From: Wickerhamiella versatilis
Taxonomy: Eukaryota
DNA: 64,000 bases
Direction of reading: 5' to 3'
Assembly: GCA_030867685.1 (NCBI GenBank)
Contig: JAQOWU010000007.1
Coordinates: 372,001 to 436,000, forward strand
In this document: piece after piece, positions 1,968 to 55,309 of the stretch
How positions within the stretch are numbered: the stretch's first letter is position 1
Layout of the letters: each line of letters opens with the position of its first letter
Program-made: the position numbers and the translations under genes
Notes under the pieces: model-generated
The model's database searches: none
What the model was told of the DNA's origin: nothing
The model's input: only the letters and a program-made list of their open reading frames with translations

Positions 1968-3206
1968 ATGACTGACTTCCTGGTTATCGGAGCGGGGTTG
2001 GTAGGGCTGACTAGCGCGCTCCAACTGCAAAAAGAAGGCTTTCGAGTGAAAATAGTCGATCGCAAAGGTCCTGGTCTCGGTACGTCATATGGTAATGCTG
2101 GTGTGATCGCTACGATAGAGTCAGAGCCACTAGCGAATCCACATTCACTTATGCAAGCGCCATTCCTCCTATTCGACAAGGAAGGTGCACTCAAAATGCA
2201 TCCTGGGTATATGTTGAATTTATTCCCATTCATGACTAGGTTTGTGATGTCCTGCTTGCCTTCCCGGGTGGAATCAGGAGACAAAGCACTTCATTCGCTC
2301 AATTCTAATGCACTTGGCGCATGGAAGAGATGCTTGAAGTCTATCGGTGCCGAAAAAGAACTTGTAAAATCGGGATTGATAATGGTTTGGCAGAGAGAGA
2401 ATGCGATAAGGGATATAAAGTCATTCCAAGCAAACCTTCGCGACAAAGGGTTAGAATCACAACTTCTAGAGGGTGATGAGATACAGTCTCATGAGCCACA
2501 GCTCAATTCTAGTATACGCTATGGTCTTTTGTTTCCTAATGTTTACCATGTCAGTGAACCCTATCGTGTGTCCACTTGTCTTTTCGAAGCATTAAAAAAA
2601 AACGGTGCTGAATTCATTGAAGAGGATATTAAAACTGTGAAGGTAAACCCGTCTAATGTCGAGGCAAAGTCAGAAAATATTACTTTGAGGGCTTCAAAGC
2701 TTCTGATTGCCTGTGGTGCTGAGAGTGCAAAGTTGGCCACGGAACTGGGAGTTCACGTACCACTTGAGGCAGAAGCTGGTCATCATATCATGATGCCTGA
2801 AAGAAAGAAAACTCTCAACCATATCGTTACCTCGGCAGATAGTCACATATATATGACCCCTATGATCTCAGGATTGCGAGTAACTGGCTTTTCCGAGTGG
2901 GGTGGGCTGAATTTGAAACCAAACTTGACAAGATACAATACACTGGCCCACATCGCAAGTGGGATCTTGCGCGATAGTGTTGTTCTAAACGACGCAACAA
3001 CCTGGACAGGCTTCAGGCCCACCCTCCCTGACTACTTACCTGTCATTGGTAGGCATCCTCAGTACCCAGAACAGGTTTACTTCGCATTTGGCCACCAACA
3101 TTTGGGAGTTACACAGTCTGCAATTACTGCAGAGCTAATAGCGGCGATAGCTAAGGGGCGCGCTCCAAAAGTTGACCTAGCTCCATTCCGCCCCGATAGA
3201 TTTTGA
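1968..3206 (+). CDS. Bacterial-type FAD-dependent D-amino acid dehydrogenase (DadA family, resembles D-hydroxyproline dehydrogenase LhpB)
   Basis: VIGAGLVG dinucleotide motif, GTSYGNAG, WTGFRPTLPD, AFGHQHLGVTQ, C-terminal PDRF; all typical of proteobacterial DadA/LhpB proteins. Confidence 0.85.
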   Translation: MTDFLVIGAGLVGLTSALQLQKEGFRVKIVDRKGPGLGTSYGNAGVIATIESEPLANPHSLMQAPFLLFDKEGALKMHPGYMLNLFPFMTRFVMSCLPSRVESGDKALHSLNSNALGAWKRCLKSIGAEKELVKSGLIMVWQRENAIRDIKSFQANLRDKGLESQLLEGDEIQSHEPQLNSSIRYGLLFPNVYHVSEPYRVSTCLFEALKKNGAEFIEEDIKTVKVNPSNVEAKSENITLRASKLLIACGAESAKLATELGVHVPLEAEAGHHIMMPERKKTLNHIVTSADSHIYMTPMISGLRVTGFSEWGGLNLKPNLTRYNTLAHIASGILRDSVVLNDATTWTGFRPTLPDYLPVIGRHPQYPEQVYFAFGHQHLGVTQSAITAELIAAIAKGRAPKVDLAPFRPDRF

Positions 3207-3353
3207 GGCGTGTCAGATCAACACACAGGCAGAACTATTTTGAAGTGTGCACAATTTAATTTTATGTAGTAGTACAGAGTAAATGAAATCGAGTCACTTG
3301 TTTCAAAGGTATGTTATGGTCTGAAAACTACTTGAACCTAAGTGATGGTGCGT

Positions 3354-4043
3354 CTAACGAGGAAGGTCATCCGAGACCTCCACATGGAAATGCGGTCGTG
3401 TGAACAAGTTTCTTATCAACCCCTTATCCATGTCTCCCTGCACATACCACTTGGGTCGAGAAAAACTTACTACTGATGTTGAGGGCTCATCGCTAGCAAC
3501 TTTAGCAGCAATAGTAGTGCTACTCAAGACGCCAGGGTGCAGTCCCAATTTTTCTACCATGCCTTCAAGACTCGCCTCCACATCTGGAGAGACCTTAGCT
3601 TCTTTGGAGCACAGTATCGCGGCAGCCTTTTCAAACTTTATATCCTTCATTTGATCACATACGTCTTCTAGGTACTGTAAAGGTAGGCTGATAACCAAGA
3701 TATCAGCGTCCTCTGCCACTTTATGGATATCTGAGCTTGCATGAAGGTTGAAAGGTAAAGGAACCTCTGGAAGGTACTGAACATTCTCATGATAGGTATT
3801 TATGATATCGGTGAGTTTCATATCATCTACCATTTCTTCATGTACCCACATTTTTACATCTCGATGGAATAAGTAGGGCTTTCCCATGCAATTATGCGCT
3901 ACTATCCGGGCAATAGCAGTACCCCACTGGCCAGCACCTATTACGGCAACGCGAAATCTCTGTCTATAATTTGAAGCAATATACGCTGGCGCGGATTTAC
4001 TGCCAAGCAACTCTTCCAACCTCTTCGTCGGTGTTGCTGTCAT
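3354..4043 (-). pseudogene. C-terminally truncated NAD-dependent glycerol-3-phosphate dehydrogenase (Gpd1-like N-terminal domain only)
   Basis: FRVAVIGAGQWGTAIA, VKMWVHEE, LTDIINTYHENVQYLP, LFTRPHFHV match Gpd1. The ORF stops just before the GALKN catalytic-Lys motif and no continuation is visible downstream. Confidence 0.75.
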
Positions 4044-4407
4044 TTACGTAATTGAAGAGATGTGTTGGGATATTTTATAAGTGGAACCTACCACTAGAGT
4101 AAATATAGAAGGCTGAATATATATTATTTCTTTGAATACCAATTTTAAAAAGAAACTCAGTGATGATCTCCACAGACATACATTCACTCAGTGCGCCAGT
4201 GAAATAAAGTAGATTATATAGCAACTAGATCAAGCCAACATGAGCAATGATAGTAAGGTAGGTAATGGTGACACACACGCATACTGCGAGGATACGAAAA
4301 TTTCGCATTCGATGAAGCAAGCTTAAACATTACTAATATACTTTTACTATTGACCAACAACTTTAAAAAAAATACTACAGCAGGTAGCATTATGCGGTCT
4401 TTTATGT

Positions 4408-6414
4408 TCAATAGAAGTTAAGCTTGATACCTTTTTCGCGAGCAATAGCCCACCAGTAAGATGGCAAACCAGAAGCTTGCCTCCTTCTAACCTCGTTAAT
4501 GACCTCCAACTTATCTCCATATCTGAATGGACTTGTAGAACTTAGGTTTTGGAACCACAAGTTGTAGCGCCTAGTGAGATCTGTATCTGAAAAAATTGCC
4601 TCGCAGGCCCCTATAAATCCTGCAAAGCAGGGCGGACAGACTAGCGGCGCATTTCGAGTTTGCGTCAGCTCATTTATCGCTTCCAAATGACTCAAAATTC
4701 TCTTTATTCGCGGCTGAAGAATCGATCTATCAATGTTCTTGGTTACCCTGTAATGATAGACGACCAAAGCCTCGTGAAAAGCGAGCGTATGGTGGTTAAC
4801 AAGAGCTAGACAAACACCTTTCCTGCCTGCATCTGTCTCTTCTTCTACAGGTGCTAGTATCATAGGTGGGGTGTATTGATGATACCAATTTTCGAGTGCT
4901 GCTTCAAAATTGATGCACTTCTCGCTATGTTGAACCTCAATACCCTGTTGAGTCAAGATTCCTTGGCCATCACGAGTTCCACGAGATAGCATTATTGCTT
5001 CTTTAAATAGAAAGCCAAGAGAGCAAGGAATGCCATAGGTTAGCTCCCAAGAGTTTCCTTTCAATTCAGCCTCATACATATCCTCATCTTTCTCTACGAA
5101 GAACGGCTCTTCAATGACGTATTGCATGAGATATTCCTCGAATTCGGGAAGGCTTGTAAGTTGCAATGATGGATTTAAACGCGTGTTGCGAGTTTCAATA
5201 GATTTTCTAGCCATATCGCTTTTGTCTGGAAGCATTCCAGAGAAAATGTGATCAATCCAACTGTAAGTTGATTCGTCTATGTAAAACTGGTCGCATTCAT
5301 TTATGCTAAGCATCAGGGATCCGGAGAGCCTTGATAGAATCATAGACATCGCTGAAGTCCTATGTAGAGTGGCAGCCTTAGCACTGACTTTTGGTCTCTG
5401 TTGCAGACGGCTACCTATCAGTAGTCCAATAACATCGAAAAATTTCCACGGTATAGAATGATCATATTCAGCAAAATAATCGGTTCTTTGCAGACATTGT
5501 AGAGCTACCAATAGGTCTTTGTATTTGCCAGCATGGCATCCCTCAAAGCTTCCTTTAATACTACATTTTGCAGCAGTATGTAGTTTTTGACCTAGATCGT
5601 TGTAATATCGAATGCCTTCATTATTTGGCGAGCAACGATCACGGATAAAATATGCTGTGCTGGCTGTAATGCTGTAAAGGATGCAAAGCCGTCCACATGA
5701 ACTGTGGCCAGTAGATAGCACATCCCCAATTGCACTTACGGCTCGCGGAGTCTGGGAAGTGCGCCAAGAGTTCTGAGGATGTACCAGAAAAGACATATAG
5801 GGCATCATGTATTCGTGATATACAGAAAGTAAATATTGAGTTAACGGTGATAATTGGGGTAGCTGTCTTGGCTTTTCAACCGGAAAATAAGGGAGGTAGT
5901 CTGAGAAGTCCGCTTGAAATAGTATATTATCGTGCTTTTGCTCACAGGATTCAAAATAATTGGGCGGTAAAGCCCGATAAAAAAAGTAGGGAAGTGGGAT
6001 AAAATCACCTTTAGACGGATTATGAAGCCACTTAGGGTAGCTTGGATGCGTTATATTAGAAGGCATGGTTTTTAAAGACTTCGCTTTGGGAGAATTATCT
6101 GTGATGGATGCACTGAAAGTGGCGAATGGACCCTCAATCATGGTTTTACGTTCAGGTCTCGCCAAATCGATTCTGACCAGTGCCTCATCCAGCTCTTCAT
6201 GCGTAGCATAGAGCATCGAATTTGGAAACTTCACAAACCCAATAGGACGCCTAGTCTCTGCCACATCCTCATCCCCCCAGGTTAATCGTATTCCGTATCC
6301 TTCACAATCTATACTCGCACGAGCACAGCGATTACAAGTGGGAACTGCCTGATCACATTTTACTTTTCTTTTACGACATGACCAGCATCCCTCGAATGAC
6401 TTATATCTTGCCAT
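4408..6414 (-). CDS. Zn2Cys6 transcription factor, Arg81-like N-terminus
   Basis: SFEGCWSCRKRKVKCDQAVPTCNRCARASIDCEGYGIRLTW; first ATG at 6414. Confidence 0.9.
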   Translation of the reverse strand: MARYKSFEGCWSCRKRKVKCDQAVPTCNRCARASIDCEGYGIRLTWGDEDVAETRRPIGFVKFPNSMLYATHEELDEALVRIDLARPERKTMIEGPFATFSASITDNSPKAKSLKTMPSNITHPSYPKWLHNPSKGDFIPLPYFFYRALPPNYFESCEQKHDNILFQADFSDYLPYFPVEKPRQLPQLSPLTQYLLSVYHEYMMPYMSFLVHPQNSWRTSQTPRAVSAIGDVLSTGHSSCGRLCILYSITASTAYFIRDRCSPNNEGIRYYNDLGQKLHTAAKCSIKGSFEGCHAGKYKDLLVALQCLQRTDYFAEYDHSIPWKFFDVIGLLIGSRLQQRPKVSAKAATLHRTSAMSMILSRLSGSLMLSINECDQFYIDESTYSWIDHIFSGMLPDKSDMARKSIETRNTRLNPSLQLTSLPEFEEYLMQYVIEEPFFVEKDEDMYEAELKGNSWELTYGIPCSLGFLFKEAIMLSRGTRDGQGILTQQGIEVQHSEKCINFEAALENWYHQYTPPMILAPVEEETDAGRKGVCLALVNHHTLAFHEALVVYHYRVTKNIDRSILQPRIKRILSHLEAINELTQTRNAPLVCPPCFAGFIGACEAIFSDTDLTRRYNLWFQNLSSTSPFRYGDKLEVINEVRRRQASGLPSYWWAIAREKGIKLNFY

Positions 6415-6850: not shown

Positions 6851-9172
6851 ATGTTGGGAGCTGAAAAGAACAAAGTTTCGACGGCAACCGTCAAGGACCT
6901 CAACGAAGAGGAGGAATCTGTTCATAAAGGCTATGTAGGTACTGATGATGTCGGGTTGGAGGAGTCAGAAATGGTTGAATATGGCCCTGATGAGATACTT
7001 GACGAAACAGCTGAGAATGCGCCCTTGCCTGAAGTGAGATCAGTTGTCAGCCCCTTTGATGACGATAGTCTTCCGGTAAACACATTTCGCGCATGGTTGC
7101 TTGGTATTTTATTTACAATTATCGGCTCTGGTATTAATCAATTCTTTTCTATGCGTTACCCAGGCATAACTATAAGTTCCATGGTGGCACAATTGGTATC
7201 TTTTCCTTGTGGGGTGTTTCTTGCTAAGGTTCTCCCTGTACGTGAGTTTAGTCTTGGACGGCTTGGAAAATACAAATTAAATCCCGATCGAAAATTCAAC
7301 AGTAAAGAGCATACATTGATCACGATAATGGCTAACATATCATTCACTTCGGCTTGGGCCACAGACATCATTCAGGCCCAGTTTATCTATGGTAAAATGC
7401 CTGCTGTAGGGTTTCAGTTCCTATTAGTGCTAACATGCCAGCTTTTCGGACTGGGAATTGCCGGACTAGCACAGGATATTTTAGTGCATGATTCCCGTAA
7501 CTATTGGCCCACTACTTTGGCAAATGTAGCTCTATTTGCCTCTTTACACTCGAAGGCAAATCCTGTGGCTAATGGTTGGATGATAAGTCGTCTGAAATTT
7601 TTCCTTGTAGCATTCGGTGCTGCTTTTATCTATTACTTTTTCCCGGGATTCATTTTCACTGCGCTGTCGAATTTTACCTGGATTTGTTGGATCGTACCTA
7701 AAAATATTGTGGTCAATCAGTTATTCGGACAAATTCAAGGCTTAGGTTTCAGTCCAATTACATTTGACTGGTCACAAATCACGTATGGTTACAGTTCTTC
7801 ACCAATGCTTATTCCCCCATCAGCTCTTGTAAATGGAATTTTGTCTTGGCTCCTTTTTTTTGCTATACTACCAGTAATACTTTATTATACCAACAAGATG
7901 TACTTCTCGTATCTTCCAATGTCTTCTTCTACAGTTTTTGATAATAAAGGCAACGAATATAACGGTTCGAGGGTCTTGGATGGGGGGAATCTGTCGCTGA
8001 ATGAAGAGGCATATCGCAACTACTCACCACCTTTTCTGGCGGCCACCTATGCAATTTCATACGCATGTTCTTATGCTGTTCTATCTTCATCAATAACATA
8101 CCTTGTTCTTTATCATGGTAAAAGTATATTAGAAACCTTCAAAGGACAGCAAAAGAAAGATGTTCATGTGCGGCAGATGGAAAAGTACAAAGCTGTACCA
8201 AAATGGTGGTATATTCTACTTACCTTGATTATCTATGCTATTACCATTGGGATCAATGAAAGGTATGAGACTGATTGGCCGGTATGGGGAATAACCATAG
8301 CCCTGCTTATGGTAGCTGTTTTCATCATCCCCGTTGGGATAGTTTATGCCAGGACAAATATAAATACTAATTGCATGACTGTATTGGGGCAAGTCATAGC
8401 AGGATATGCTCTCAACCCACCTAAACCAATTGTATCCTTGCTTTGGAAGTTTTATGCTTACACTGGGATTTCACAAGCAATGTATTTCAGCCAGGATATA
8501 AAACTTGGATATTATATGAAGGTTCCCAAAAGAACAATTTTTGCGGCCCAATTCACTGCGTGCATAATAGGTGCTATTGTGCAGGTTGGTGTTTTGCTGG
8601 GAATGCTCCAAGGACTTGATGGAATATGTACGCCAGGCCAAAAAGATAATTTTACGTGTCCACAAGGGACAACTAATTATGCAGCATCGGTTATTTGGGG
8701 GCTTGTTGGTCCTCAGCGGCTTATATCTGCGGGAAAGCTTTATTCTGGTTTTCTTCATCTATTTTGGATCGGAGCTGTGGTTGTCTTGCTTACCTGGCTA
8801 CTTCAGAGAAAATTTCCTAATAATCGTGTTCTGAAAAATATTAACTGGGTTGTGTTCTTCGGAGCACTGGGGAATTATCCTCCAGCCACAGGTATTAACT
8901 ATACATCAGCGTTTGTGGTTGGGATCGCTTTCAATTATTTCATTAAAAGAAGATATGGAAATTGGTGGCTTAAGTATAATTTTGTCCTATCAAGTGCTCT
9001 TGATGTTGGAACAGCCCTTTCAGGTATAGTGATTTTTCTATGTCTAGGTCTCACAGGTGCTTCGCTTAAGTGGTGGGGGAACGAAGTTTATAATAATACA
9101 GCTGATGGGAAGCTCACTCCGTACAAGGAATTACCATCTAAGGGGTATTTTGGACCAAGCTCTTGGTCTTAA
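6851..9172 (+). CDS. OPT-family oligopeptide transporter
   Basis: PLPEVRSVV, NTFRAW, FNSKEHTLITIMA, QDIKLGYYMKVP, KYNFVLSSALDVG, WWGN. Confidence 0.95.
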   Translation: MLGAEKNKVSTATVKDLNEEEESVHKGYVGTDDVGLEESEMVEYGPDEILDETAENAPLPEVRSVVSPFDDDSLPVNTFRAWLLGILFTIIGSGINQFFSMRYPGITISSMVAQLVSFPCGVFLAKVLPVREFSLGRLGKYKLNPDRKFNSKEHTLITIMANISFTSAWATDIIQAQFIYGKMPAVGFQFLLVLTCQLFGLGIAGLAQDILVHDSRNYWPTTLANVALFASLHSKANPVANGWMISRLKFFLVAFGAAFIYYFFPGFIFTALSNFTWICWIVPKNIVVNQLFGQIQGLGFSPITFDWSQITYGYSSSPMLIPPSALVNGILSWLLFFAILPVILYYTNKMYFSYLPMSSSTVFDNKGNEYNGSRVLDGGNLSLNEEAYRNYSPPFLAATYAISYACSYAVLSSSITYLVLYHGKSILETFKGQQKKDVHVRQMEKYKAVPKWWYILLTLIIYAITIGINERYETDWPVWGITIALLMVAVFIIPVGIVYARTNINTNCMTVLGQVIAGYALNPPKPIVSLLWKFYAYTGISQAMYFSQDIKLGYYMKVPKRTIFAAQFTACIIGAIVQVGVLLGMLQGLDGICTPGQKDNFTCPQGTTNYAASVIWGLVGPQRLISAGKLYSGFLHLFWIGAVVVLLTWLLQRKFPNNRVLKNINWVVFFGALGNYPPATGINYTSAFVVGIAFNYFIKRRYGNWWLKYNFVLSSALDVGTALSGIVIFLCLGLTGASLKWWGNEVYNNTADGKLTPYKELPSKGYFGPSSWS

Positions 9173-9503: not shown

Positions 9504-10778
9504 ATGCTGTCGAAAGAATCAAATATCATAATTGTAGGAGGAGGAACTTTTGGTCTTTCTACGGCATTATGGCTGTGCAGGAATCATTATCGAAATGTCA
9601 CTGTTATTGACTGCTTTGATGTACCATCTGACCTGAGCGCAGCTTTTGACCTTAACAAAGTCATTCAATCTTCCTACGGGCCTAATGATAGGTTCACCAC
9701 GATGCTCGCGCTAGAAGCACTAGAACTTTGGCAAAATGATCCTGTTTTCTATCCACATTTTCATGATACTGGGATTGTTTATGCTACTTCAGCAGGAAAG
9801 GAAAGCGAAGAATACCACCAACTCAAGTTGGTGCATGATGAGATGGTGAACTCAGGTCGAGAGGCTAGCATACCTCTAGATAGTGTAACTGACTTCAAGA
9901 GGCTTGTGCCTCAACTCACTGGAGATATATCTTCGTGGAGAGGATTCTATCAAGCAAAAGACTGCGGATGGGCTCAAAGTCTTGGTGCACTAGCCTCTGC
10001 TGCAGAAGAGATAAAAAGGTTAGGCGGATCACTTGTTACAGCAAAAGTAGAAAGTCTTATGTTTGACGAGAATTCTACCAGAGTAGTAGGAGTATCTGCA
10101 TCTGATGGCAGAGTTTTCTACGGTGAAAAAATCGTGATTTCTGCTGGTGCATCATCTGTAAAACTCCTTGATTTCAAAAATCAGCTTCTTGCAAAGTGCT
10201 GGACGTTAGGAAAGATTAAACTTTCTCAGGAAGAGGCAAAGGAGTTTAAACACATACCTGTTGTAACAAACCAGGAAATGGGATTCTTTTTCGAGCCTGA
10301 CTATAAGAATGAAATCAAAATATGCAATGAATTTCCCGGTTATACAAATTATATAAGGGAAAGCAAAGAGCCCGATGACTCTGTGCCAGTGAAAAGGAAC
10401 TCGATCCCTAAGGAAGCCGAAGCGGGTATAAGATCTTTGCTGCATGCAACAATGCCGCGATTCGAAGGTAGGGATCTTACTGAGTCCAGAATATGTTGGT
10501 GTACTGATACACCAGATCGTAATTTCCTGATCTGTGAGCATCCAGATTACAGCGGATCACTAGTTCTTGCCACTGGAGACTCAGGACATGGATTTAAACA
10601 CATGCCAAATATCGGTAGATATATCGCAAGGCTTATTTGTTATGGGCCCGCGTCACTTGGTGAGGAGAAGAATCAAAAGTGGAGATGGCGGCCTGAAACC
10701 AGTGGTGACCGCATTCAAAACAGATTTGGAGGCTTAGGATCTGTTAAAGACCTTAACGATATCAAGGAATGGATTTAA
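9504..10778 (+). CDS. Fructosyl-amino acid oxidase (amadoriase) / saccharopine-pipecolate oxidase family flavoprotein
   Basis: IVGGGTFGLSTAL, SAAFDLNKV, GFFFEPD, IKICNEFPGYT, RICWCTDTPD (FAD-linking Cys), ATGDSGHGFK, WRWRPET. Confidence 0.88.
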   Translation: MLSKESNIIIVGGGTFGLSTALWLCRNHYRNVTVIDCFDVPSDLSAAFDLNKVIQSSYGPNDRFTTMLALEALELWQNDPVFYPHFHDTGIVYATSAGKESEEYHQLKLVHDEMVNSGREASIPLDSVTDFKRLVPQLTGDISSWRGFYQAKDCGWAQSLGALASAAEEIKRLGGSLVTAKVESLMFDENSTRVVGVSASDGRVFYGEKIVISAGASSVKLLDFKNQLLAKCWTLGKIKLSQEEAKEFKHIPVVTNQEMGFFFEPDYKNEIKICNEFPGYTNYIRESKEPDDSVPVKRNSIPKEAEAGIRSLLHATMPRFEGRDLTESRICWCTDTPDRNFLICEHPDYSGSLVLATGDSGHGFKHMPNIGRYIARLICYGPASLGEEKNQKWRWRPETSGDRIQNRFGGLGSVKDLNDIKEWI

Positions 10779-40898: not shown

Positions 40899-40912
40899 CC
40901 TGAGACTGGTTG
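40899..40912 (+). repeat. Dispersed intergenic element, partial copy D (CCTGAGACTGGTTG)
   Basis: 14-bp exact match to copies A and B. Confidence 0.7.
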
Positions 40913-43202: not shown

Positions 43203-43226
43203 CCACTCACTACCTGAGACTGGTTG
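43203..43226 (+). repeat. Dispersed intergenic element, copy B (CCACTCACTACCTGAGACTGGTTG)
   Basis: 21-bp exact match to the reverse complement of 19995-20015. Confidence 0.85.
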
Positions 43227-45976: not shown

Positions 45977-47566
45977 TCACTTCGGGTCTTGAGGATCAGC
46001 GCAAAGCGCGAGAGCTTTTTCAAGGATTTCGATTCTCAGATTCCAGCGTCTATTCAGCTCAGAGGCTAATAGAGGGAAAGCGAATCTCGAGATGGCTACT
46101 GTTGTGTGTTTCATCAACTGAATATCCAAGTAAATCCACCTTCTATGAGGAAAAAAAATGCCATTTAGCAGCATTATGCCGTAGGCAAAGTCCGCATGGA
46201 AAGGCATAAGGCCATGTTTTGTAAGAATATTTGCATGCTCGTAACAAACAACAATATTCCTTCGTGCACATTCTTCACATATCCTTGCTGCTTGAGGATT
46301 ACGGTATACAAAGGCCAATTTTGACCATAACAAACACTTGAACGTACAGAATGTGAGATGTAAGCGCAAGCGTAAAAACAGTTCTGGCCCTACATCCAAA
46401 TCAGTACCGCCCAATTCCGGTAGATTTAGTGACCATGCGTCAAGCTGCCTATTAACATCTTCCACAGCTTCAGCGATATTATGTGAGACATCAGAATCTG
46501 ACTCGATATTCAACGAGTATATAGGCTCATAGAATTTTATCATATTAGAAAAACGGCGAACAATCGATGCCTCAACCGAGTCATTAACCGGTAATGGTGT
46601 TTGTATAGCGCTCAGTTTCCAAGGTTCGTTTCCCGTTAAACAAGCCAAATCCGTATAATAATAAAACAATACCCAGCATGCAGTTTTAAGGCGTTCTGCG
46701 AGATCAGGTTGCATCACTTCAAATACTTCAGGGCGATGCAAGCCTAATTTAAAAGCCATTCCCCTGCATACCTCTGCTATGACTCGCAACTGGGCTGGAA
46801 ACCCACATATGTTCGTCGCCATTAAGACAAATATCCCCGCCAGAAAGTGAGACGGCTCTGGTTGAATCTTTTCGCACGATTCCAAAGTTAGCTGCGCCTG
46901 GGAGAAAGATAGGCTGAACGATTTGAAGTTTTTTTCGACGCCAAGGTTAACTAGCGATAACATAATGCTAGTCGTGCACATATAGCGTGCCTCTCTGTTA
47001 ATGCTCATATCATCAAGATCATCCCTGCCTAGTAATACCAAGTATATCCTGGAAATAGGCCCTAGACTTTCTGGAGCATGATCATATACGTACCGCCATC
47101 TTAAACGCACCATTTGTTCCTGGCTCTCGGTCAAACGTACATTCACTTGCATGAGATGACGGATCTGATCCAAGTACCTTTTACTCGCTGTAGCACACTG
47201 AAACATTAAAGAATTCAAAACGTTCGGCTGTCCAGGCGGTTTAAAAACCGGATCGGCCCCACAGAGAATATCCCCAAATCTATAAAATAGCGTGCTCTCA
47301 CTTCTGCTAGGTTCCCAATCAGCTGAAATCTCTAAATTGAGCATATAATCCTGCGATGTTTCCATAACATGTGATGTGGCTCTCATTATCCACCGGAGAC
47401 GATCACTTATAATTGAGGTCTTAGCGACCACATTACGAGACTCTTGGAAGATACAGCGTACTCCACGGCGAAAACAGCTAGAACATACTGGTCTAACTCC
47501 ATCACACCGTATTTTTCTCTTCCTACACGCATCACAGGCTTGGCCTACGCGAAGTTTCCCGGCCAT
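45977..47566 (-). CDS. Zn2Cys6 transcription factor
   Basis: ACDACRKRKIRCDGVRPVCSSCFRRGVRC; LGLHR middle-homology region; ATG at 47566. Confidence 0.9.
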   Translation of the reverse strand: MAGKLRVGQACDACRKRKIRCDGVRPVCSSCFRRGVRCIFQESRNVVAKTSIISDRLRWIMRATSHVMETSQDYMLNLEISADWEPSRSESTLFYRFGDILCGADPVFKPPGQPNVLNSLMFQCATASKRYLDQIRHLMQVNVRLTESQEQMVRLRWRYVYDHAPESLGPISRIYLVLLGRDDLDDMSINREARYMCTTSIMLSLVNLGVEKNFKSFSLSFSQAQLTLESCEKIQPEPSHFLAGIFVLMATNICGFPAQLRVIAEVCRGMAFKLGLHRPEVFEVMQPDLAERLKTACWVLFYYYTDLACLTGNEPWKLSAIQTPLPVNDSVEASIVRRFSNMIKFYEPIYSLNIESDSDVSHNIAEAVEDVNRQLDAWSLNLPELGGTDLDVGPELFLRLRLHLTFCTFKCLLWSKLAFVYRNPQAARICEECARRNIVVCYEHANILTKHGLMPFHADFAYGIMLLNGIFFPHRRWIYLDIQLMKHTTVAISRFAFPLLASELNRRWNLRIEILEKALALCADPQDPK

Positions 47567-47763: not shown

Positions 47764-49587
47764 CTAATATTGTTCCATTGCATGAGACCGAGATGGTCCT
47801 AGCTTCTGCGCATGTTTCTCATCCACCATACCACTCTCTGGCGGAGGTTCCGTGGCTTCAACGATGGCAAATTGATCCGGATCTAGCGTCATCTTTGGTC
47901 CATCATACCACTTGTAAGCATCAACCCAGTAGTATATAGTTGCACCAAGCCAGACTGCACCGCATATCAAAACAGTGTAGTTCATTTCATCTGCAGATGT
48001 AACAGGGATATCAGAAGGAATGATTGTGAGAGCAAAGATTACAAAAACACCATAAATTGAGGCTATAAAGTTGTTGCACCACGAAAGGGTGTGTCCCAGA
48101 TAGAAGACACCAGGATCGAATGCATCACGGTCAAAGAATGCTGTTCGGAACCATATCGGTAAGCACCACGCCAAATAAAGTGATGTAACGCCCAATGAGA
48201 AAATAGCTTCTGCCGCGGTATCACCTGCAAGAATAAGGAGTCCTATTAGCAAAGCTATAATCACATCAAAGCATAATGAAAAATATGGAATGCCTCTGGG
48301 TGTAATCTTTTTGAGTATGGAGGAAAAAGGAAGCGCATCATCGCGGGCAAATGCCCATGTCTGGCGAGATGTGGCAAGCAACTGCGAAAGCCCCATGGAC
48401 CACTGTACCACTGCAAATAAAGCCATGATACCCATAGCCCATTTTTTATTCAAAGCCCTTTCGATAACAGGAACGATTGGGAAGTCAGCGTTCATCACCT
48501 TATCAAACCCTTCTGGTGTTGGATCAATGACTGCCGCTAGTACGCACAAAATCACGAAGCCCAAAACCCAGCAAAGTCCAATACTCATCATGATTCCAAA
48601 TGGGATCGCAAATCCTGCATTTGTAGCTTCCTCTCCCATGTGAATGCAGGAATCATGGCTCGAAACAGACCAGACCGCATTCAGCCAGGAAAGTAAAAAG
48701 GTCCAACCATAAGAATAGCTGAGACCATTATTCTCATTACCAAAGACGAAAGAACCCGAATTGAGATCCTCACCTTTCTGTTTCAATCCTATAGGCACAG
48801 CAATGACCAGAATACACACGCAAACCATATTTAGAAAAATAGTTGAGGTTTGTATGTGAGACAGTAAACGATTGGGAAGACAGGCTACAAGTCCCATAGA
48901 GATGGTGGCAGCGGCATAAACACCGTAGCATTCGTAATTATTGTATTCAAAGTCTTCATACGCTAATTGCGGGCATGCGAGCAGTAGCTCAGCAAACCCA
49001 TAAGTAATGCTGGCCCCCCCGGCAATCAACCCTAAAGTATCTGCATACCCACAAAGAAAACTCCAAAAACGTTTCGATAGCAAATGCTGGCGAATTAGAG
49101 CCCATCTTGATGAGCCCGGAGTAGTCTTAATATCGTACCATAACCCTTTCTCTGATCGGGCAACATCACCCGGTGCGAATTTATATGTCCACCAATAAAG
49201 CCCCCCACTGGTAGGCATTGCAGACCCCATTTCAGACATTGACACACCGATGGACATGATGAAAAAGCAAGGTACGAACCACCCCCAAGTCATACCGACG
49301 CCTCCGCCACTAACTGATGAAGTGAACTCCGTAGCGATCGATGGGGCTACAGACATGATAGAAAAGCTTACACCTAACAAGGCCAAGGGAGAAAAAGATC
49401 GTTTCAACTCAGGCTTGTAGCCCAACTTTTCCAGCAGAAGTTCATCTCGTTCCTCCTGAGGGTTCAAGTTATGCGGAGCTGCATCCTCCTTTCTATGCTT
49501 CAGGATAGCTCCATCACTTGAGTTAGTCGACGAAGAGGATCCAACTTCAGTTCCGCCCATATCACAAGATTGCGAATTTTGACGCAT
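47764..49587 (-). CDS. APC-superfamily GABA/polyamine/choline permease (Uga4/Tpo5-like)
   Basis: LGYKPELKRSFS, SAMPTSGGLYWW, HMGEEATNA, SRQTWAFARDDALPFS. Confidence 0.9.
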   Translation of the reverse strand: MRQNSQSCDMGGTEVGSSSSTNSSDGAILKHRKEDAAPHNLNPQEERDELLLEKLGYKPELKRSFSPLALLGVSFSIMSVAPSIATEFTSSVSGGGVGMTWGWFVPCFFIMSIGVSMSEMGSAMPTSGGLYWWTYKFAPGDVARSEKGLWYDIKTTPGSSRWALIRQHLLSKRFWSFLCGYADTLGLIAGGASITYGFAELLLACPQLAYEDFEYNNYECYGVYAAATISMGLVACLPNRLLSHIQTSTIFLNMVCVCILVIAVPIGLKQKGEDLNSGSFVFGNENNGLSYSYGWTFLLSWLNAVWSVSSHDSCIHMGEEATNAGFAIPFGIMMSIGLCWVLGFVILCVLAAVIDPTPEGFDKVMNADFPIVPVIERALNKKWAMGIMALFAVVQWSMGLSQLLATSRQTWAFARDDALPFSSILKKITPRGIPYFSLCFDVIIALLIGLLILAGDTAAEAIFSLGVTSLYLAWCLPIWFRTAFFDRDAFDPGVFYLGHTLSWCNNFIASIYGVFVIFALTIIPSDIPVTSADEMNYTVLICGAVWLGATIYYWVDAYKWYDGPKMTLDPDQFAIVEATEPPPESGMVDEKHAQKLGPSRSHAMEQY

Positions 49588-50181: not shown

Positions 50182-51237
50182 CTAACTGCGCAGGTAGTTT
50201 ATCACTGGTTCACCCCATGAGGGTCGACCTCTGTAAGCGGCTACATCGTCGGGCATCGTGGCAATGTTGTCAGCTAAAACTTGACCATATCCCTCAGCTT
50301 TGATTTGTGAAATGGGATATAAGTATGTTCTCTGGGTAAAAGCAAGAAACTTGGTCTGTGGAAGTCGGGTAAGAATTTGACGAGTCACACGAGCGTAAAC
50401 TTCATTGTCGAAATCGGGTGCTCCTGCGCCAAAGAAGGATCTGTTTGGTGTTGGTCTCCACTCTTCATATGGCGAATCTGCTATTTGTATTAGCCAAGTG
50501 ATGCGTTGGACCCATTGTCCAACCTTCATTTTGCTGAAGTATTTGTTCATGGAGAATTGCAAGTGTTCCTTATAACCAGGCACCCGTGTGTGGATATCTG
50601 TCATTTTCTTGTTGTTTTTATCAGTCCACAAATAATTCACTGAACTTACACCTGCGGCAGCACGCTGCATGTACTCATCACAGTCAGCATTGTATTCGAG
50701 TAGCAAGAAATCCTCCTCGGAATTCTCGCAGAGCAGGCGCAAAAGGTCTTCTGAAGACAGACCACTTGCAGCCGCTTTACGTGGAAGCTCTTTACCCTTG
50801 ATCTTGTTCAAGATCTTCTTGCCCTTGACCTCGAAGTATTGTGGATATCTTTGAGTAAGGGTGCACATCGCAAAGTCATACAATTCTCGAGCCGCATTCT
50901 TCGTTTCAATTGTGTCTGCTGCAAGACATGTGCTATTTGGATTATCCTGCATTACTTTTCGATGAATATCGGTGATAACTTCGTAGTCCGAGTCTACAGT
51001 GAGCCATTCTTCATGAGTGGTTCGTCCAATATTCATTACTTCACGGTAGTTGGGTTTGAATGGGCGGTACTGAGGGATCTTTTCTGTTCTCCAGTCGTAA
51101 CCTTCTGAAACCGGCTGAACATCAACATTCTCATGTATTTTGCCGGAATATTGTAATTTAAACCAGACCAGCTGGGCCACACGGAAAATTAAATAAAAGC
51201 AGAGGAGCAAAAGTACGGCTTTTGATATCTCTATCAT
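50182..51237 (-). CDS. DUF3445 family protein (heme-dependent oxidative N-demethylase alpha-like)
   Basis: YRPFKP, QRYPQYF, EEDFLLL, IHTRVPGY, RQILTRLPQT; ATG at 51237. Confidence 0.8.
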   Translation of the reverse strand: MIEISKAVLLLLCFYLIFRVAQLVWFKLQYSGKIHENVDVQPVSEGYDWRTEKIPQYRPFKPNYREVMNIGRTTHEEWLTVDSDYEVITDIHRKVMQDNPNSTCLAADTIETKNAARELYDFAMCTLTQRYPQYFEVKGKKILNKIKGKELPRKAAASGLSSEDLLRLLCENSEEDFLLLEYNADCDEYMQRAAAGVSSVNYLWTDKNNKKMTDIHTRVPGYKEHLQFSMNKYFSKMKVGQWVQRITWLIQIADSPYEEWRPTPNRSFFGAGAPDFDNEVYARVTRQILTRLPQTKFLAFTQRTYLYPISQIKAEGYGQVLADNIATMPDDVAAYRGRPSWGEPVINYLRS

Positions 51238-51520: not shown

Positions 51521-53293
51521 ATGGGAAAAAAGGAATCAACTCTCTACGGTGTTAACGAGGAGGTTAAGTCAGGTTCGGTAGTAGACATCGAGCTAAAGGA
51601 CAGCCAATCGAACTGGTTCAAACGGGCCTTCGATTCGTTCAAGCCTCCTCGAAATTATGATTTTGCCACGGAGGGAATGACTTATGGAGAAGTTGGGTTA
51701 GAGTACATGGCTCGCAACAAACATGATCTTCGGTCCAGACATCTCCTTATCATAAGTCTTTCCGCTTGTATAGGTACAGGACTGTTTATTGGAAGCGGTA
51801 ACATCCTAAAGCAAGCGGGTCCATCTGGGCTCCTTCTAGGTAGTATCATTACGGCAGTAATGGTACTGTGCTCAATGGCTTCGGTTAGCGAGATGTCGGT
51901 GCGCTATCCCTCAGAATCCCCTTTTAGTGACTTCCCAGCTCGGTTCTTTGATCGCTCTTGGGGGTTCACGCTGGGATGGATGTATGCACTAGCAATGATT
52001 GTCTCGATTCCGCTAGAACTAATAGCAGGTGCAATGGCTACACAGTATTGGAAGACTGATGATAATGCCGCTGCACATACAAACCCAGTTGCATGGGTGA
52101 CTTTGCTTGTTGTCTTTTTTATAGTGGTTCAATTATTTGGCAACGTCCTTTTCGCAGAATATGAGTTTTTTTCCGGATCTGTAAAAATCCTTACCATGGT
52201 AGGATTCATTCTATTCGCAATAATCGTTGATTGTGGCGGAGGATCTTCACACCAATACATCGGAGGCTCAAGATGGGAACATCCAGCTAATGATGCCGGG
52301 GTAAGCTATAAAGCTGGATTTGCAAACTCCTTCAAGGGCATTGTTTTTTCGTTAGCCAATTGGCCTTTAACATATGGTACTACTGAAATCTCCTGTGTAT
52401 CGGCAGCAGAGTCTACAAATCCTGTGAAATCAATCAGTTCTTTGACTAAACGGACTGTATGGCGCTTTTGTATATTTTTTATATTGGGAATTTCGCTAGC
52501 TTGTCTGATAGTTCCATTTGACAATGCAGATGTTGGTTCAGGTAGCGACGGATCGGGTTCTCCATTCGTTATAGCATTGAGGATGGCAGAAGTCAAAGGT
52601 TTACCTTCTGTTTTCAATTCTGTGATCATCATCTCTGTATTGGCAATGGGGAACTCTGCGGGATTCGCTGGATCGCGTATCATGGTCTCACTGGCAGCAA
52701 ACGGTCACGCCCCAAAGTTCCTGGGCTATGTTGACCGAAAGGGCAGACCGCTTGGTGCTCTTTCAGTAGAATTTGTCTTTGCCGCGTTGTCCTTTGTTTG
52801 CGCTTCTGATAAATACAGCGAGGTCTTCAACTGGATGTATGCATTTATTTCCCTGGTCTTCTTATTTGTATGGGCTATTTTCTGCCTATCATTTCTCAAC
52901 ATGCGGTGGGCGATGAAGTACAGAGGTGTTTCGACAAGCGAATTAGTGTACAAGAGCCCACTTGGTATTCCTGGGGCAGTGATTGGCGCTATTCTACCTA
53001 TTGCTGTTCTAGGCTTGCAATTCTGGATCTATATTTGGCCATTTGGCTATGATACGATGACACCGCGTGAGCGGGCTGAGGCATTTTTCCAGGGAGACTT
53101 GTCGGTGATCGTGGCGTTGATCTTATTCGTAGGGCACAAAGCGATTACACGAAGTCGTATGATAAGCTATAAGGAAATTGATCTCGACTCAAACCTGCGT
53201 GAAATTGATTATGAGCTCCTTGAAAAGGAAAAGGAAAGGAAGAGTGATAGGACAAAAAACCCTGCACTCTTTCTCTTCTCAAGAATATTTTGA
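51521..53293 (+). CDS. Yeast amino-acid permease (YAT family, Gap1-like)
   Basis: LRSRHLLIIS, IGTGLFIGSG, AAESTNP, SPFVIA, APKFLGYVDRKGRP. Confidence 0.93.
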   Translation: MGKKESTLYGVNEEVKSGSVVDIELKDSQSNWFKRAFDSFKPPRNYDFATEGMTYGEVGLEYMARNKHDLRSRHLLIISLSACIGTGLFIGSGNILKQAGPSGLLLGSIITAVMVLCSMASVSEMSVRYPSESPFSDFPARFFDRSWGFTLGWMYALAMIVSIPLELIAGAMATQYWKTDDNAAAHTNPVAWVTLLVVFFIVVQLFGNVLFAEYEFFSGSVKILTMVGFILFAIIVDCGGGSSHQYIGGSRWEHPANDAGVSYKAGFANSFKGIVFSLANWPLTYGTTEISCVSAAESTNPVKSISSLTKRTVWRFCIFFILGISLACLIVPFDNADVGSGSDGSGSPFVIALRMAEVKGLPSVFNSVIIISVLAMGNSAGFAGSRIMVSLAANGHAPKFLGYVDRKGRPLGALSVEFVFAALSFVCASDKYSEVFNWMYAFISLVFLFVWAIFCLSFLNMRWAMKYRGVSTSELVYKSPLGIPGAVIGAILPIAVLGLQFWIYIWPFGYDTMTPRERAEAFFQGDLSVIVALILFVGHKAITRSRMISYKEIDLDSNLREIDYELLEKEKERKSDRTKNPALFLFSRIF

Positions 53294-53428
53294 GAGCTTT
53301 TCTTACTTATAGAACAACATATATTTAAATGGTAGTATTATCCCCGCTAAAGTCAATTATTTGAGACATAAATATTCATAACGCTCTGCTTGATGAATCG
53401 TCCCAGTTGAATTAGTAACTGAGTATAA

Positions 53429-54037
53429 ATGAGAGATGTACAAATTGTCTGGGCTCATCCGCGGGAAAACTCTTTGACAGCTGCAGTGGTTTCTGCAGTT
53501 AGTGAGGAGCTTAAGAAACATCATTTCTCTGTAACCGAGCTTGATTTGTATCGCACGGGGTTTAGACCCATCTTGGAGGCTGCTGATGAGCCTGACTGGG
53601 CGGACTGTTCTAAGGTGTATTCTGATGACATTATGAAGTTAGCAAATGACCTGAAAAGCAAAGATTCAGTCATTTTCGTATTTCCTGTGTGGTGGTATTC
53701 GGTCCCAGCCATTATGAAGGGGTACATCGATCGAGTCTGGAACCACGGTCTGGCCTATGGACCCAAGCAATTGTTTCGATTGAGCAGCGTGTTCTGGATT
53801 GGATTAATGGGAACAACTGAGCAGAATTGTGCAGCGCTTGGCCTAAACACTAGTATGGAGACTCAGCTCAATGTGGGAATTGCTGAATTTTGCGGTATCA
53901 AGGATAGTGAGACGCTGATTCTCTACGAAACAGTTGCTGAGCAAGGCACGTACTCAAGAGAGCATTACTTAAGAATAATTAGCAATGCTCGGGAACGCAT
54001 TGCTGAATGGGCAAGAGCTCTCACAAATAATTTATAG
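53429..54037 (+). CDS. Flavodoxin-fold NAD(P)H:quinone oxidoreductase, bacterial YcaK-like
   Basis: VWAHPRENSLT, ELDLYR, DEPDW, FPVWWYSVPAIMKGYIDRVWNHGLAYG closely follow E. coli YcaK as recalled. Confidence 0.88.
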   Translation: MRDVQIVWAHPRENSLTAAVVSAVSEELKKHHFSVTELDLYRTGFRPILEAADEPDWADCSKVYSDDIMKLANDLKSKDSVIFVFPVWWYSVPAIMKGYIDRVWNHGLAYGPKQLFRLSSVFWIGLMGTTEQNCAALGLNTSMETQLNVGIAEFCGIKDSETLILYETVAEQGTYSREHYLRIISNARERIAEWARALTNNL

Positions 54038-54136
54038 TATTTAATTCGGTACCGATTTCTCACGTCGTCCTCTAAACTCACTAGGAGACTTATTTAGTAT
54101 ATTTAGAAATAAAAAAAATAGCTATTGGGTACTCGC

Positions 54137-55309
54137 TTAAGCAGCTACCCTGATAGGGCCACCGAGAATTGTCTTACGTATTCCCATCATAATTGTATCA
54201 CCTGTTTCCTCCGCTAGTTCTTGATACCAAGAGTCCGTTGTCTCTGCATCTTTTCCATGCGTTATCTCATTACGATGGCGAGCCCTTCTTACGATAGAGG
54301 CAACGCGCTCTACCCGGGCTTGGTTGTAAGCGGTAAGAGCTTCGCCAATATTGTTCTTGCACTTCTCCAGGCACTGGGACAAAACCCATCCGTCCTCAAT
54401 AGCTTGAACACCACCTTGACCAAGATCTGGTGACATTGCATGGGCAGCGTCTCCGATCAATGCAACGCCCTGGTCAGTAAGATTATCCAGAGGTTTAATA
54501 TCATGAACTTCCACACGTGCTATTGTTGAGGGATCCATAACATCGATAAGCTCTTGGACAGGCCTTGCCCATCCTTTGAAATGGTAGGACAACTCACTCT
54601 TGTATTTCGCTGGGTCATTTTCGCTTCCCAAAGCAAGTGGGACGTCGAAAAAGAAGTAGTGCCAGCCTTGACCCATAGGCATCAATGATACTCTTTTGCC
54701 ATCACCAACATACTGAACCCATTCGCCATCTGGCATAATGCCCTCACCGAGCTTGACGCGTCCATTCCAGTTCACGTACCCACTATACTGGCGGTCAACC
54801 TTCCTTCCTGCTACTTGATTCCTTAGGGTAGAATGTGTACCATCCGCACCTATAAGAAGGTCTGCATCGACGCTATCACCGTCATCGAACAATACTTCAA
54901 CTCTTCCGTTAGCTTTTTCCCGGTAACCTACGCACTGTTTCCCCAAGATCACATCGGCATCTGCCTTTTCTAGAAGCACGCGCTGCAGTTCAGTACGTGC
55001 AATTGGCTTGGCTGCCCTACCTACAGACTCATACAGTGGAGCAAGGCTGAATTGGGTCAGCTTTTTCCCGTTCTTATTATGATAACTCATACTTTCCAGG
55101 TTCCCGCTGGCATCGTCAATAGCGTCACCTAATCCCAAAGCATCTAGAACGAGCACACCATTACTCCATACCGATATGGCGGATCCTGCTGGTCGTAACG
55201 CCTGCACACGGTCGAATAGCCTAACCTTGTGGCCATGTTGCCGAAGAGCGATGGCGGTCGCCAGACCTCCGATTCCAGCCCCAGCGATCACAATATCAAG
55301 CGAACTCAT
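54137..55309 (-). CDS. hpxO: FAD-dependent urate hydroxylase, bacterial type
   Basis: AISVWSNG, TQFSLAPL, YSGYVNWNG, GKRVSLMP, FFFDVPL, GQGG, ITHGKD...WYQELAEETG...ILGGP; collinear with Klebsiella HpxO as recalled. Confidence 0.9.
   Translation of the reverse strand: MSSLDIVIAGAGIGGLATAIALRQHGHKVRLFDRVQALRPAGSAISVWSNGVLVLDALGLGDAIDDASGNLESMSYHNKNGKKLTQFSLAPLYESVGRAAKPIARTELQRVLLEKADADVILGKQCVGYREKANGRVEVLFDDGDSVDADLLIGADGTHSTLRNQVAGRKVDRQYSGYVNWNGRVKLGEGIMPDGEWVQYVGDGKRVSLMPMGQGWHYFFFDVPLALGSENDPAKYKSELSYHFKGWARPVQELIDVMDPSTIARVEVHDIKPLDNLTDQGVALIGDAAHAMSPDLGQGGVQAIEDGWVLSQCLEKCKNNIGEALTAYNQARVERVASIVRRARHRNEITHGKDAETTDSWYQELAEETGDTIMMGIRKTILGGPIRVAA

Follow-up and report, generated by a model that had tools for sequence, protein, structure and literature searches.

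A 64,000-bp stretch of DNA from the yeast Wickerhamiella versatilis (GenBank assembly GCA_030867685.1, contig JAQOWU010000007.1, positions 372,001 to 436,000 of the forward strand), referred to here as the window, carries ten genes of bacterial type among fungal ones. The window contains 34 distinct open reading frames (ORFs) of at least 150 aa, tightly packed on both strands, and a Pfam family could be assigned to 32 of them. GC content is flat along the window (0.40-0.47), which has no tRNA genes and no repeats of at least 40 bp, and hence no repeat or mobile-element marks of insertion sites. An earlier note, made from the sequence alone, had described the region as rich in horizontal gene transfer, with about ten ORFs of bacterial signature and a lysA relic scattered among fungal transcription factors and permeases. 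All ten of the ORFs that it named lie in the window, linked to fungal genes, and all are uninterrupted.

In their order along the window, the bacterial-type genes encode a FAD-dependent DAO-family oxidoreductase of 412 aa (1968-3206, plus strand), a class-III transaminase of 441 aa (10881-12206, minus strand), a putative glycoside hydrolase of 576 aa (12440-14170, plus), a YbjJ-like transporter of the major facilitator superfamily (MFS) with 409 aa and 12 transmembrane segments (16516-17745, minus), and a carbon-nitrogen (CN) hydrolase of 282 aa (27103-27951, minus). These are followed by a TetR-family regulator of 190 aa (35388-35960, minus), an amidase-signature amidase of 519 aa (36178-37737, plus), an AdhP-type zinc alcohol dehydrogenase (ADH) of 346 aa (44404-45444, plus), a YcaK-type NAD(P)H oxidoreductase of 202 aa with a flavodoxin fold (53429-54037, plus) and the FAD-dependent urate hydroxylase HpxO of 390 aa (54137-55309, minus). 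Three of the ten (AdhP, YcaK-type and HpxO) pass the curated NCBIfam cut-offs and five more match bacterial NCBIfam families below the cut-off; the 576-aa protein and the MFS transporter are without any NCBIfam match.

Ten bacterial-type genes out of 34 is a clear excess over a background of 3.8% (binomial tail 3.6e-7). The background is a borrowed and generous figure, equivalent to 211 bacterial genes among the 5,498 genes of the most transfer-rich yeast described. The gene list of the earlier note is sound as regards these ORFs, but the lysA relic went undetected: none of the 63 intergenic stop-to-stop frames of at least 50 aa matches the Orn/DAP decarboxylase family, and the best hit of four gammaproteobacterial LysA queries in a tblastn search of the window had an E value of 0.67.

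Four genes tested against global protein collections

How firmly can a bacterial origin be assigned to individual genes? Four of the ten, picked as the most surprising or the most doubtful, were searched against collections of billions of proteins: TetR, HpxO and the DAO-family oxidoreductase in three word-indexed searches, and the MFS transporter in one exhaustive search of representatives. No named fungal protein appears among the best 58-150 matches of any of them. Organism names are carried by only part of the matches, and the names seen are bacterial or metagenomic. Bacterial affinity is a direct observation for these four genes, whose bacterial origin it supports.

HpxO passes the cut-off of its NCBIfam equivalog family, NF033623, along the entire profile (530.3 against a cut-off of 500, positions 1-381 of 381). 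The global search returned relatives at 97, 78, 75, 71 and 64% identity, then the protein of Halotalea alkalilenta at 63%, and further down a long series of HpxO proteins from Pseudomonas, Halomonadaceae and cyanobacteria; the named rows in the best 120 are all bacterial. In a maximum-likelihood (ML) tree of 54 of the 92 rows, from which loci had been thinned by score, the window copy and four relatives form a clade (support 100) inside a gammaproteobacterial group (support 97), with Halotalea and Cernens as the nearest rows (83-84) and the cyanobacterial clade across a branch with a support of 100. The yeast protein aligns end to end with PDB chain 3rp6, the solved Klebsiella enzyme (375 bits), and has the motifs GxGxxG (GAGIGG) at residue 10 and GDAAH at residue 286. 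Its Arg206 and Tyr218 align with an Arg and a Tyr of 3rp6 and are invariant across 15 sequences; these two residues are presumably Arg204 and Tyr216 of the native enzyme, which are important for urate hydroxylation. Going by family membership, the yeast HpxO should hydroxylate urate.

The DAO-family oxidoreductase matches Pfam DAO with 186 bits and the NCBIfam DadA subfamily with 182 bits, under the cut-off of 383, and has GxGxxG at residue 8. A single relative with 75% identity was found in the global search, followed by Halomonadaceae (Chromohalobacter, Halomonas) at 47-50%; here too, every named row in the best 120 is bacterial, and identity to plasmid genes is 36-38%. The ML tree of this protein has 38 rows, taken from the best 120 for their names or high rank. 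The window copy and its 75% relative form a pair (support 100) with a long stem, next to a subclade of Halomonadaceae (83), and the pair is nested in a group of Halomonadaceae, Oceanospirillales and Vibrionaceae (100). The protein groups with others labelled D-amino-acid or D-hydroxyproline dehydrogenase, and probably has a related role. ML phylogenies, which the earlier note had proposed as a check, thus exist for two of the ten bacterial-type genes; both came from quick IQ-TREE searches and contain no fungal rows, and in both the yeast proteins nest in Gammaproteobacteria near Halomonadaceae.

The TetR protein scores 59.4 bits against Pfam TetR_N (cut-off 24) and has the layout of the family, that is, an N-terminal helix-turn-helix domain and an all-helical ligand domain in a total of about 190-200 aa. 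It has relatives at 97% and 68%, after which the global search lists bacterial-type TetR/AcrR proteins only, at no more than 35%; in a MAFFT alignment, identity to bacterial-type relatives is 34-39%. It aligns over its full length with 11 of these TetR/AcrR proteins, in which the helix-turn-helix segment is invariant. The two yeast-type copies agree better in the DNA-binding part (40 of 49 residues identical, 82%) than in the rest (81 of 128, 63%). The tetR and amidase genes are divergent, with 217 bp between their start codons. No inverted repeat was found in 35900-36240 (seed 6, at least 8 bp, arms at most 30 bp apart), a search that imperfect operators would escape.

The MFS transporter matches Pfam MFS_1 (48.5 bits). 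Its exhaustive search found a single relative at 72%, with the next match at 44% and most matches 375-400 aa long. Among ten clusters that were looked up, those with names were 'fucose permease' (a JGI label without an organism), 'Inner membrane protein YbjJ [compost metagenome]' and MFS transporters of Pectobacterium. Plasmid genes of Rhizobium and Paraburkholderia are 42-45% identical.

Six genes compared with bacterial collections

For the transaminase, the 576-aa protein, the CN-hydrolase, the amidase, the ADH and the YcaK-type protein, identities were taken from bacterial collections only. Full-length identity to bacterial genes is 46-58.6% across this set, and a bacterial origin is probable for all six.

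The transaminase had been labelled 'HemL-like', and it does match the NCBIfam hemL family with 370 bits, below the cut-offs of 527 and 398. It is 58.6% identical to a Caballeronia plasmid gene and 57% identical to genes of Microvirga and Brucella intermedia. The best PDB match is the class-III aminotransferase 6k8h (461 bits), followed by ForI and beta-transaminases, while true glutamate-1-semialdehyde (GSA) aminomutases reach at most 269 bits. The protein is thus better described as closest to omega/beta-amino-acid transaminases than as a GSA aminomutase. On plasmids of Caballeronia and Brucella intermedia, its homologues lie in clusters with genes for an aldehyde dehydrogenase, FAD oxidoreductases, a class II aldolase and IclR/LysR regulators, joined in B. 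intermedia by amino-acid ATP-binding cassette (ABC) transporter genes. These look like an uncharacterised cluster for the catabolism of an amino compound.

The 576-aa protein, earlier called a TIM barrel, has no Pfam match. A plasmid gene of Hymenobacter matches 94% of the protein at 48% identity, and only four plasmid records match. In the Atlas, the nearest clusters (scores of 0.98-0.99) have a bacterial share of 78-100%, and some of them carry DUF6259 or GH31-type domains, hence the assignment as a DUF6259/GH31-like putative glycoside hydrolase. The CN-hydrolase is the weakest case of the ten. It matches Pfam CN_hydrolase with 111 bits and is 44-46% identical to genes of Cupriavidus (the best, at 46%), Shinella and Chondrinema, with a Cys at residue 142 within a C-Y-D motif. 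An aliphatic amidase scores 95 bits among PDB chains, against 63 bits for the yeast Nit3-type protein 1f89. The earlier label 'nitrilase' can be narrowed accordingly to the aliphatic-amidase/formamidase branch, which fits best if weakly.

The amidase (Pfam Amidase, 275 bits) is 56.5-58.4% identical over 96-98% of its length to genes of Burkholderia, Caballeronia, Shinella, Variovorax and Thioclava. Lys85, GGSS167-168 and Ser191 are invariant in an alignment with two bacterial homologues, and the best PDB match is a peptide amidase (195 bits). Its bacterial homologues are located in clusters with urea/amide ABC-transporter, formamidase and ANTAR-regulator genes. The ADH just passes the NCBIfam AdhP equivalog cut-off (345.2 against 344) and is 55-58% identical to plasmid genes of Caballeronia (57.7%), Halomonas, Paracoccus and Sphingobium. 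It matches a set of ADH chains in the PDB, which we take to be bacterial, with 392-443 bits, against 245 bits for yeast ADH1 (4w6z). The YcaK-type protein exceeds the cut-off of NF007280 (238.6 against 162) and, over 98% of its length, shares 53.8% identity with a plasmid gene of Enterobacter; identity to E. coli ycaK is 37.6%.

Two of the six have partial support of another kind, the ADH from the PDB and the DUF6259 protein from the Atlas clusters; the bacterial matches carry the other four. Two genes of non-bacterial type that served as negative controls, the DUF3445/HODM-like and PNGase A-like genes, gave only partial matches to bacterial plasmids, of 23-26% and 26% identity, respectively.

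The fungal backbone

The fungal character of the gene backbone is plain, and the claim that bacterial-type genes are interleaved with fungal transcription factors and permeases is borne out by the Pfam and PDB matches of the neighbours. Three full Zn2Cys6 factors were found (4408-6414, minus strand, with Zn_clus and Fungal_trans_2; 17938-19896, plus, with Zn_clus; 45977-47566, minus), together with an OPT oligopeptide transporter (6851-9172, plus; Pfam OPT, 573 bits), a UapA-type uric acid-xanthine permease (14626-16347, plus), two amino-acid permeases (47764-49587, minus; 51521-53293, plus), a pair of eukaryotic aspartyl proteases (38813-40015 and 41406-42809, both minus; Pfam Asp, 168 and 225 bits for the pair), a KTR mannosyltransferase and a GPR1/FUN34 gene. 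The UapA-type permease belongs to Pfam Xan_ur_permease and matches the 'Uric acid-xanthine permease' 5i6c with 503 bits, against 49 bits for a bacterial uracil permease. The two amino-acid permease genes flank the DUF3445/HODM-like gene (50182-51237, minus; HODM_asu, a haem-dependent N-demethylase alpha-like family, 219 bits), which belongs to the same fungal block.

Further non-bacterial genes are a PNGase A-like gene (28109-29620, minus), a GRDP-like gene (30402-32705, plus), both named from Pfam, and a 552-aa ORF (33249-34907, plus) that lies between the GRDP-like gene and tetR. This ORF belongs to no Pfam or NCBIfam family and has weak WD40/propeller-like neighbours in the Atlas, under the threshold of recognition. 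The genes of a methylcitrate-cycle trio, which encode a eukaryote-type citrate synthase, PrpD and an isocitrate-lyase family enzyme, adjoin each other on the minus strand (21263-26243).

A second DAO-family ORF (9504-10778, plus) is not of bacterial type. Its best PDB matches are fructosyl amine:oxygen oxidoreductases (326 bits), which makes it a fungal-type fructosyl-amine (Amadori) oxidase. The gene lies tail to tail with the transaminase gene, 102 bp apart. A joint transfer of the two was rejected, since the transaminase homologues of bacteria stand next to FAD oxidoreductases that have only the FAD motif in common with this yeast neighbour. The fructosyl-amine oxidase is of filamentous-fungus type and a candidate for fungus-to-yeast transfer, and it may matter for the use of glycated amino acids in heated or fermented foods.

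In composition and layout, the bacterial-type genes resemble their neighbours. GC content at third codon positions (GC3) is 0.411 in the ten bacterial-type genes and 0.416 in the other 24 (p = 0.73). The bacterial-type genes are monocistronic and intron-less, lie 100-1,600 bp from the next gene and alternate singly with fungal genes.

Integrity of the assembly

The assembly was checked against Logan contigs, not raw reads, over 27000-46999. In a run from an independent isolate, one not flagged as a possible source of the window, a contig of 43,663 bp agrees letter for letter with 27000-45183, and a contig of 77,800 bp continues from 45156. The shorter contig bridges the junctions between the CN-hydrolase and PNGase A-like genes, the 552-aa ORF and tetR, the amidase and protease genes, and the protease and ADH genes. 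Fungal/bacterial junctions within 27000-45183, which the earlier note had singled out for scrutiny, are thus bridged. Two metagenome runs labelled as food fermentation gave contigs at least 99% identical over 27000-46999, a 9.5-kb probe was found in full in runs of many studies, and the stretch is present in runs of 12 studies.

The contigs of all three DNA runs break at 45154-45185, inside the ADH gene. Since a 32-base record there has about twice the depth and long contigs abut on both sides, the break suggests a repeated word, with a second copy elsewhere in the genome, perhaps in an ADH paralogue.

None of the runs recorded as RNA contains the stretch. An organism about 95% identical, in a run guessed to be of RNA, is represented by gene-sized contigs over the CN-hydrolase, PNGase A-like, GRDP-like, 552-aa, amidase, protease and ADH genes, with some cover also over the TetR region; such contigs cannot show transcription. 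One of them skips 49 bases at 38757-38807, downstream of the protease ORF at 38813-40015. This could be a strain indel; the ends read CA..TT on the plus strand and are not GT..AG on the strand of the gene.

Age and number of the transfers

Have the bacterial-type genes arrived together or separately? For the relatives of the oxidoreductase (75%), the MFS transporter (72%), TetR (68%) and HpxO (78%), the longest contig is given as 76,047 bp in every case, which suggests that a related organism, too, has these genes linked, across what in the window is a 53-kb span. The nearest bacterial proteins are only 35-63% identical and base composition is fully ameliorated, and the transfers would therefore be old.

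The groups that provide the best matches differ from gene to gene: Halomonadaceae-like bacteria for HpxO and the oxidoreductase, Burkholderiaceae and plasmids of Rhizobiales for the amidase and transaminase, and Bacteroidota and Gemmatimonadota for the DUF6259 protein. A common donor for all of the genes was rejected on the evidence of the amidase, whose best identity in 121 Halomonadaceae genomes is 32-38%. Genes that are neighbours in the window do not adjoin at the hpxO, amidase and TetR-relative loci examined in donor-type genomes. A YcaK-type gene was found at none of 80 bacterial hpxO loci (with 8-kb flanks where the contig allowed), and other bacterial-type window genes occur at these 80 loci at the level of paralogues only (the transaminase at 28-29% in six loci, the amidase at 27-29% in one). 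No annotated TetR neighbour was seen at five bacterial amidase loci, and no amidase within 1.5 kb of distant TetR relatives at 12 loci drawn from 401 Pseudomonadota genomes, one of them unpublished. With GC3 equal, best-match lineages different and no pair adjacent in the bacterial loci examined, the genes probably represent separate old transfers and not one island.

Relation to published transfers

Bacterial genes in yeasts of the clade of Wickerhamiella and Starmerella (W/S), and their pile-up in chromosome-end domains, are already known. The premise that these yeasts carry many bacterial genes, including ADH1, is correct according to the available texts of two studies (PMC5897096, PMC13376923). 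For Candida versatilis, now placed in Wickerhamiella, Goncalves et al. (2018) arrive at 211 bacterial genes, and they report 52 ortholog groups common to W/S species (PMC5897096). Brito et al. (2026) describe three chromosomes per species, almost no transposons (0.2% of the genome), bacterial genes that are mostly enzymes and no donor match above 70% identity (PMC13376923). Xenologues accumulate significantly in AT-enriched, weakly expressed 'end' domains, some of more than 500 kb in W. versatilis, and the accumulation is explained by the permissive, low-expression nature of these domains; five of 24 acquired transporters are not of Pezizomycotina origin (PMC13376923).

The window resembles these end domains in its accumulation of xenologues (10 of 34 ORFs), its mix of bacterial-derived metabolic, probable filamentous-fungus-derived and native genes, its scarcity of repeats, the absence of donors above 70%, the predominance of enzymes with few transporters, and transfers common to several species (PMC13376923). 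It fits the published description in each respect tested, and is probably set in such a domain. The window thus provides a clean worked example of single domesticated foreign genes, from several bacterial groups, among fungal regulators and permeases and apparently linked in a relative.

Comparison with other known systems shows both likeness and difference. The published W/S ADH1 is, like the ADH of the window, a bacterial-type zinc ADH in a yeast, and bacterial genes common to related species point to ancestral acquisition. It clusters, however, with Acetobacteraceae (ADH1/ADH6 and SUC2 are among the alien-index genes; PMC5897096), whereas the ADH of the window best matches the plasmid genes of Caballeronia, Halomonas, Paracoccus and Sphingobium described above. 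The enterobactin pathway reached W/S yeasts by horizontal operon transfer (Kominek et al., bioRxiv 10.1101/399394). In that case too, bacterial genes sit on a yeast chromosome of the same clade, where they are expressed, but they form one contiguous operon from one donor family, unlike the interleaved genes of several donor groups found here. In the Klebsiella hpx cluster for purine utilisation, HpxO is the flavin urate hydroxylase (PMC13751858). The yeast HpxO corresponds to this enzyme in its family cut-off and end-to-end alignment, but stands alone in the window, without hpx neighbours, and the urate transporter is of the fungal UapA type and not HpxP. Yeast HpxO is not mentioned in the available text of that review (PMC13751858).

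The content of the window also recalls, in a looser way, subtelomeric gene sets for nutrient scavenging and the yeast DAL cluster, in which nitrogen-catabolic genes and permeases are likewise gathered in a non-central region. The DAL genes are reportedly native genes relocated into a tight six-gene cluster, as Wong and Wolfe are said to have described in 2005; by contrast, the enzymes of the window are foreign and lie scattered across more than 50 kb, with unrelated genes in between.

A nitrogen theme

By annotation, 14 of the 34 ORFs are concerned with the uptake or breakdown of nitrogen compounds: the DAO-family oxidoreductase, the OPT transporter, the fructosyl-amine oxidase, the transaminase, the UapA-type permease, the CN-hydrolase, the amidase, the two aspartyl proteases, the two amino-acid permeases, the DUF3445/HODM-like protein, HpxO and a nucleoside hydrolase. 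Judged from these annotations, the bias towards nitrogen is real, and the content of the window leans to nutrient scavenging, of nitrogen compounds especially. Among the ten bacterial-type genes, five plausibly encode nitrogen-releasing enzymes (the oxidoreductase, the transaminase, the CN-hydrolase, the amidase and HpxO), and the other five are glycosidase-like, an ADH, quinone-reductase-like, a transporter and a regulator. Candidate substrates would be urate, amides, D- or beta-amino acids, peptides and glycated amines. The earlier note had placed the yeast in a sugar-rich, nitrogen-poor niche; the food-fermentation label of the metagenomes is uninformative on nitrogen poverty.

Two leads are judged worth bench work, the TetR-amidase pair and the combination of the UapA-type permease with HpxO. 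The permease and HpxO genes are separated by about 38 kb of the window. Together, the fungal permease and the bacterial hydroxylase may provide a chimeric route by which the yeast uses urate as a nitrogen source, with HpxO as a possible oxygenase replacement for a missing or lost fungal uricase. It is a long shot that a bacterial TetR, intact in at least two yeast-type genomes, has been rewired in a eukaryote to control an amidase of a different bacterial lineage. If it were so, with TetR binding DNA in the yeast nucleus and answering to a small molecule, this regulator would represent nature's own version of the engineered Tet switch.

Among the transferred functions discussed in the main texts of one study (PMC13376923) and one review (PMC12461148), with supplementary gene tables outside the scope, there is no mention of nitrogen catabolism, urate, amidases or TetR. 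The nitrogen bias may for this reason merit a genome-wide test.

Origin of the mixed gene content

The window is likely to be true chromosomal DNA of a budding yeast, in which about ten bacterial genes, from different times and lineages, have settled among native and fungal-derived genes. The bacterial genes would have been acquired singly, at different times and from several bacterial lineages, and each would have become an independent intron-less eukaryotic gene with intergenic regions of its own and the base composition of the host. The transfers would be common, apparently in linkage, to a related organism with 68-78% identical proteins, and the region may form part of a permissive chromosome-end domain that gathers foreign genes, as described for yeasts of the clade. 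The earlier description of a transfer-rich region is right in this sense, with direct support for four genes and a probable bacterial origin for six.

Several points weigh against this explanation. Six of the ten genes rest on bacterial comparisons, and the criteria applied to them could be satisfied by a gene that was not recently acquired; PrpD, in the same window, shows both bacterial identity and an equivalog score above the cut-off. The exact sister groups in both trees have values of only 83-84 in the SH-like approximate likelihood ratio test (SH-aLRT) after quick searches, and the oxidoreductase pair sits on a long branch (1.84) and has a deviant composition. The yeast nature of the near relatives is deduced from identity and contig sizes, and the single 76-kb contig from four proteins that share one longest-contig figure.

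Could the mixture be an artefact, either an assembly chimera or bacterial contamination? Nothing in favour of this was found. The Logan contigs of all three DNA runs do break at 45154-45185, but the break fits a repeated word on which long contigs abut, and the isolate contig crosses 27000-45183 without a difference. The occurrence of the stretch in runs of 12 studies, GC and GC3 equal to those of the neighbours, the single interleaving of monocistronic genes with fungal ones and the apparent linkage of relatives in another organism are all at odds with an artefact, which is effectively refuted for 27-47 kb and next to impossible overall. Vertical inheritance, in which ancient fungal genes were lost from most fungi, draws on the fact that six candidates were compared with bacterial collections only, and on PrpD. 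The latter, which we take to be a normal, widespread budding-yeast gene, is 65.5% identical to Caballeronia PrpD, above the plasmid identities of all ten bacterial-type candidates, and passes a bacterial NCBIfam equivalog cut-off. Identity to bacteria alone therefore proves little. Either PrpD is a further xenologue or identity is non-discriminating, and both ways the six genes stay probable. Vertical inheritance is nonetheless very improbable in view of the global searches, which gave no named fungal protein among the best matches of TetR, HpxO, the oxidoreductase and the MFS transporter, and of the two trees, where the yeast-type clades sit inside Gammaproteobacteria; in addition, TetR regulators, GSA-aminomutase-like transaminases and YcaK-type proteins are not known as budding-yeast families.

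The passage of the genes from a single donor in one block or a few, which fungal insertions then split, would account for the divergent tetR and amidase genes, whose 217-bp spacing is a classic bacterial TetR layout, for the convergent YcaK-type and hpxO genes about 100 bp apart, and for the shared pointer of HpxO and the oxidoreductase to Halomonadaceae-like donors. Neither pair, however, is adjacent in the bacterial loci (0 of 5 for TetR beside the amidase, 0 of 12 for the amidase beside TetR relatives, 0 of 80 for a YcaK-type gene within 8 kb of hpxO), the nearest bacterial relative is at 35-39% for TetR against 58% for the amidase, and the amidase reaches at most 38% in the Halomonadaceae genomes, so that block transfer is improbable. 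A stronger contender, plausible and unproven yet rather doubtful, is the integrated neighbourhood envisaged by the earlier note, in which fungal transporters and Zn2Cys6 regulators were selected to sit with bacterial enzymes under common regulation so as to scavenge nitrogen. The 14 nitrogen-related ORFs, the presence of both a urate permease and a urate hydroxylase, and the urea/amide clusters around bacterial amidase homologues all speak for it. Against it, only half of the bacterial-type genes encode nitrogen enzymes, between the permease and HpxO come about 18 unrelated ORFs (150 aa or longer), and the case is built from annotation. Nutrient-scavenging genes are generally common near yeast chromosome ends, and the nitrogen theme may therefore reflect location and not selection for clustering. 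The published account attributes the build-up of foreign genes to permissive, low-expression domains (PMC13376923).

Signs of local gene decay

Two features of the window are signs of local gene decay. The gene at 3354-4043 (minus strand) encodes a 229-aa N-terminal fragment of a eukaryote-type NAD glycerol-3-phosphate dehydrogenase, which matches Pfam NAD_Gly3P_dh_N only and positions 1-195 of 342 in TIGR03376. Because its stop is only 147 bp from the end of the oxidoreductase gene, there is no room for the C-terminal domain, and the fragment probably represents a paralogue cut short, or a pseudogene, at an old point of rearrangement or insertion. The second feature is a Zn2Cys6 cluster motif (28 bits, E 2e-6) in a 78-aa frame at 61106-61339 (plus strand), which lies in a 1.3-kb gap without the body of a transcription factor and is probably what decay has left of a fungal regulator gene.

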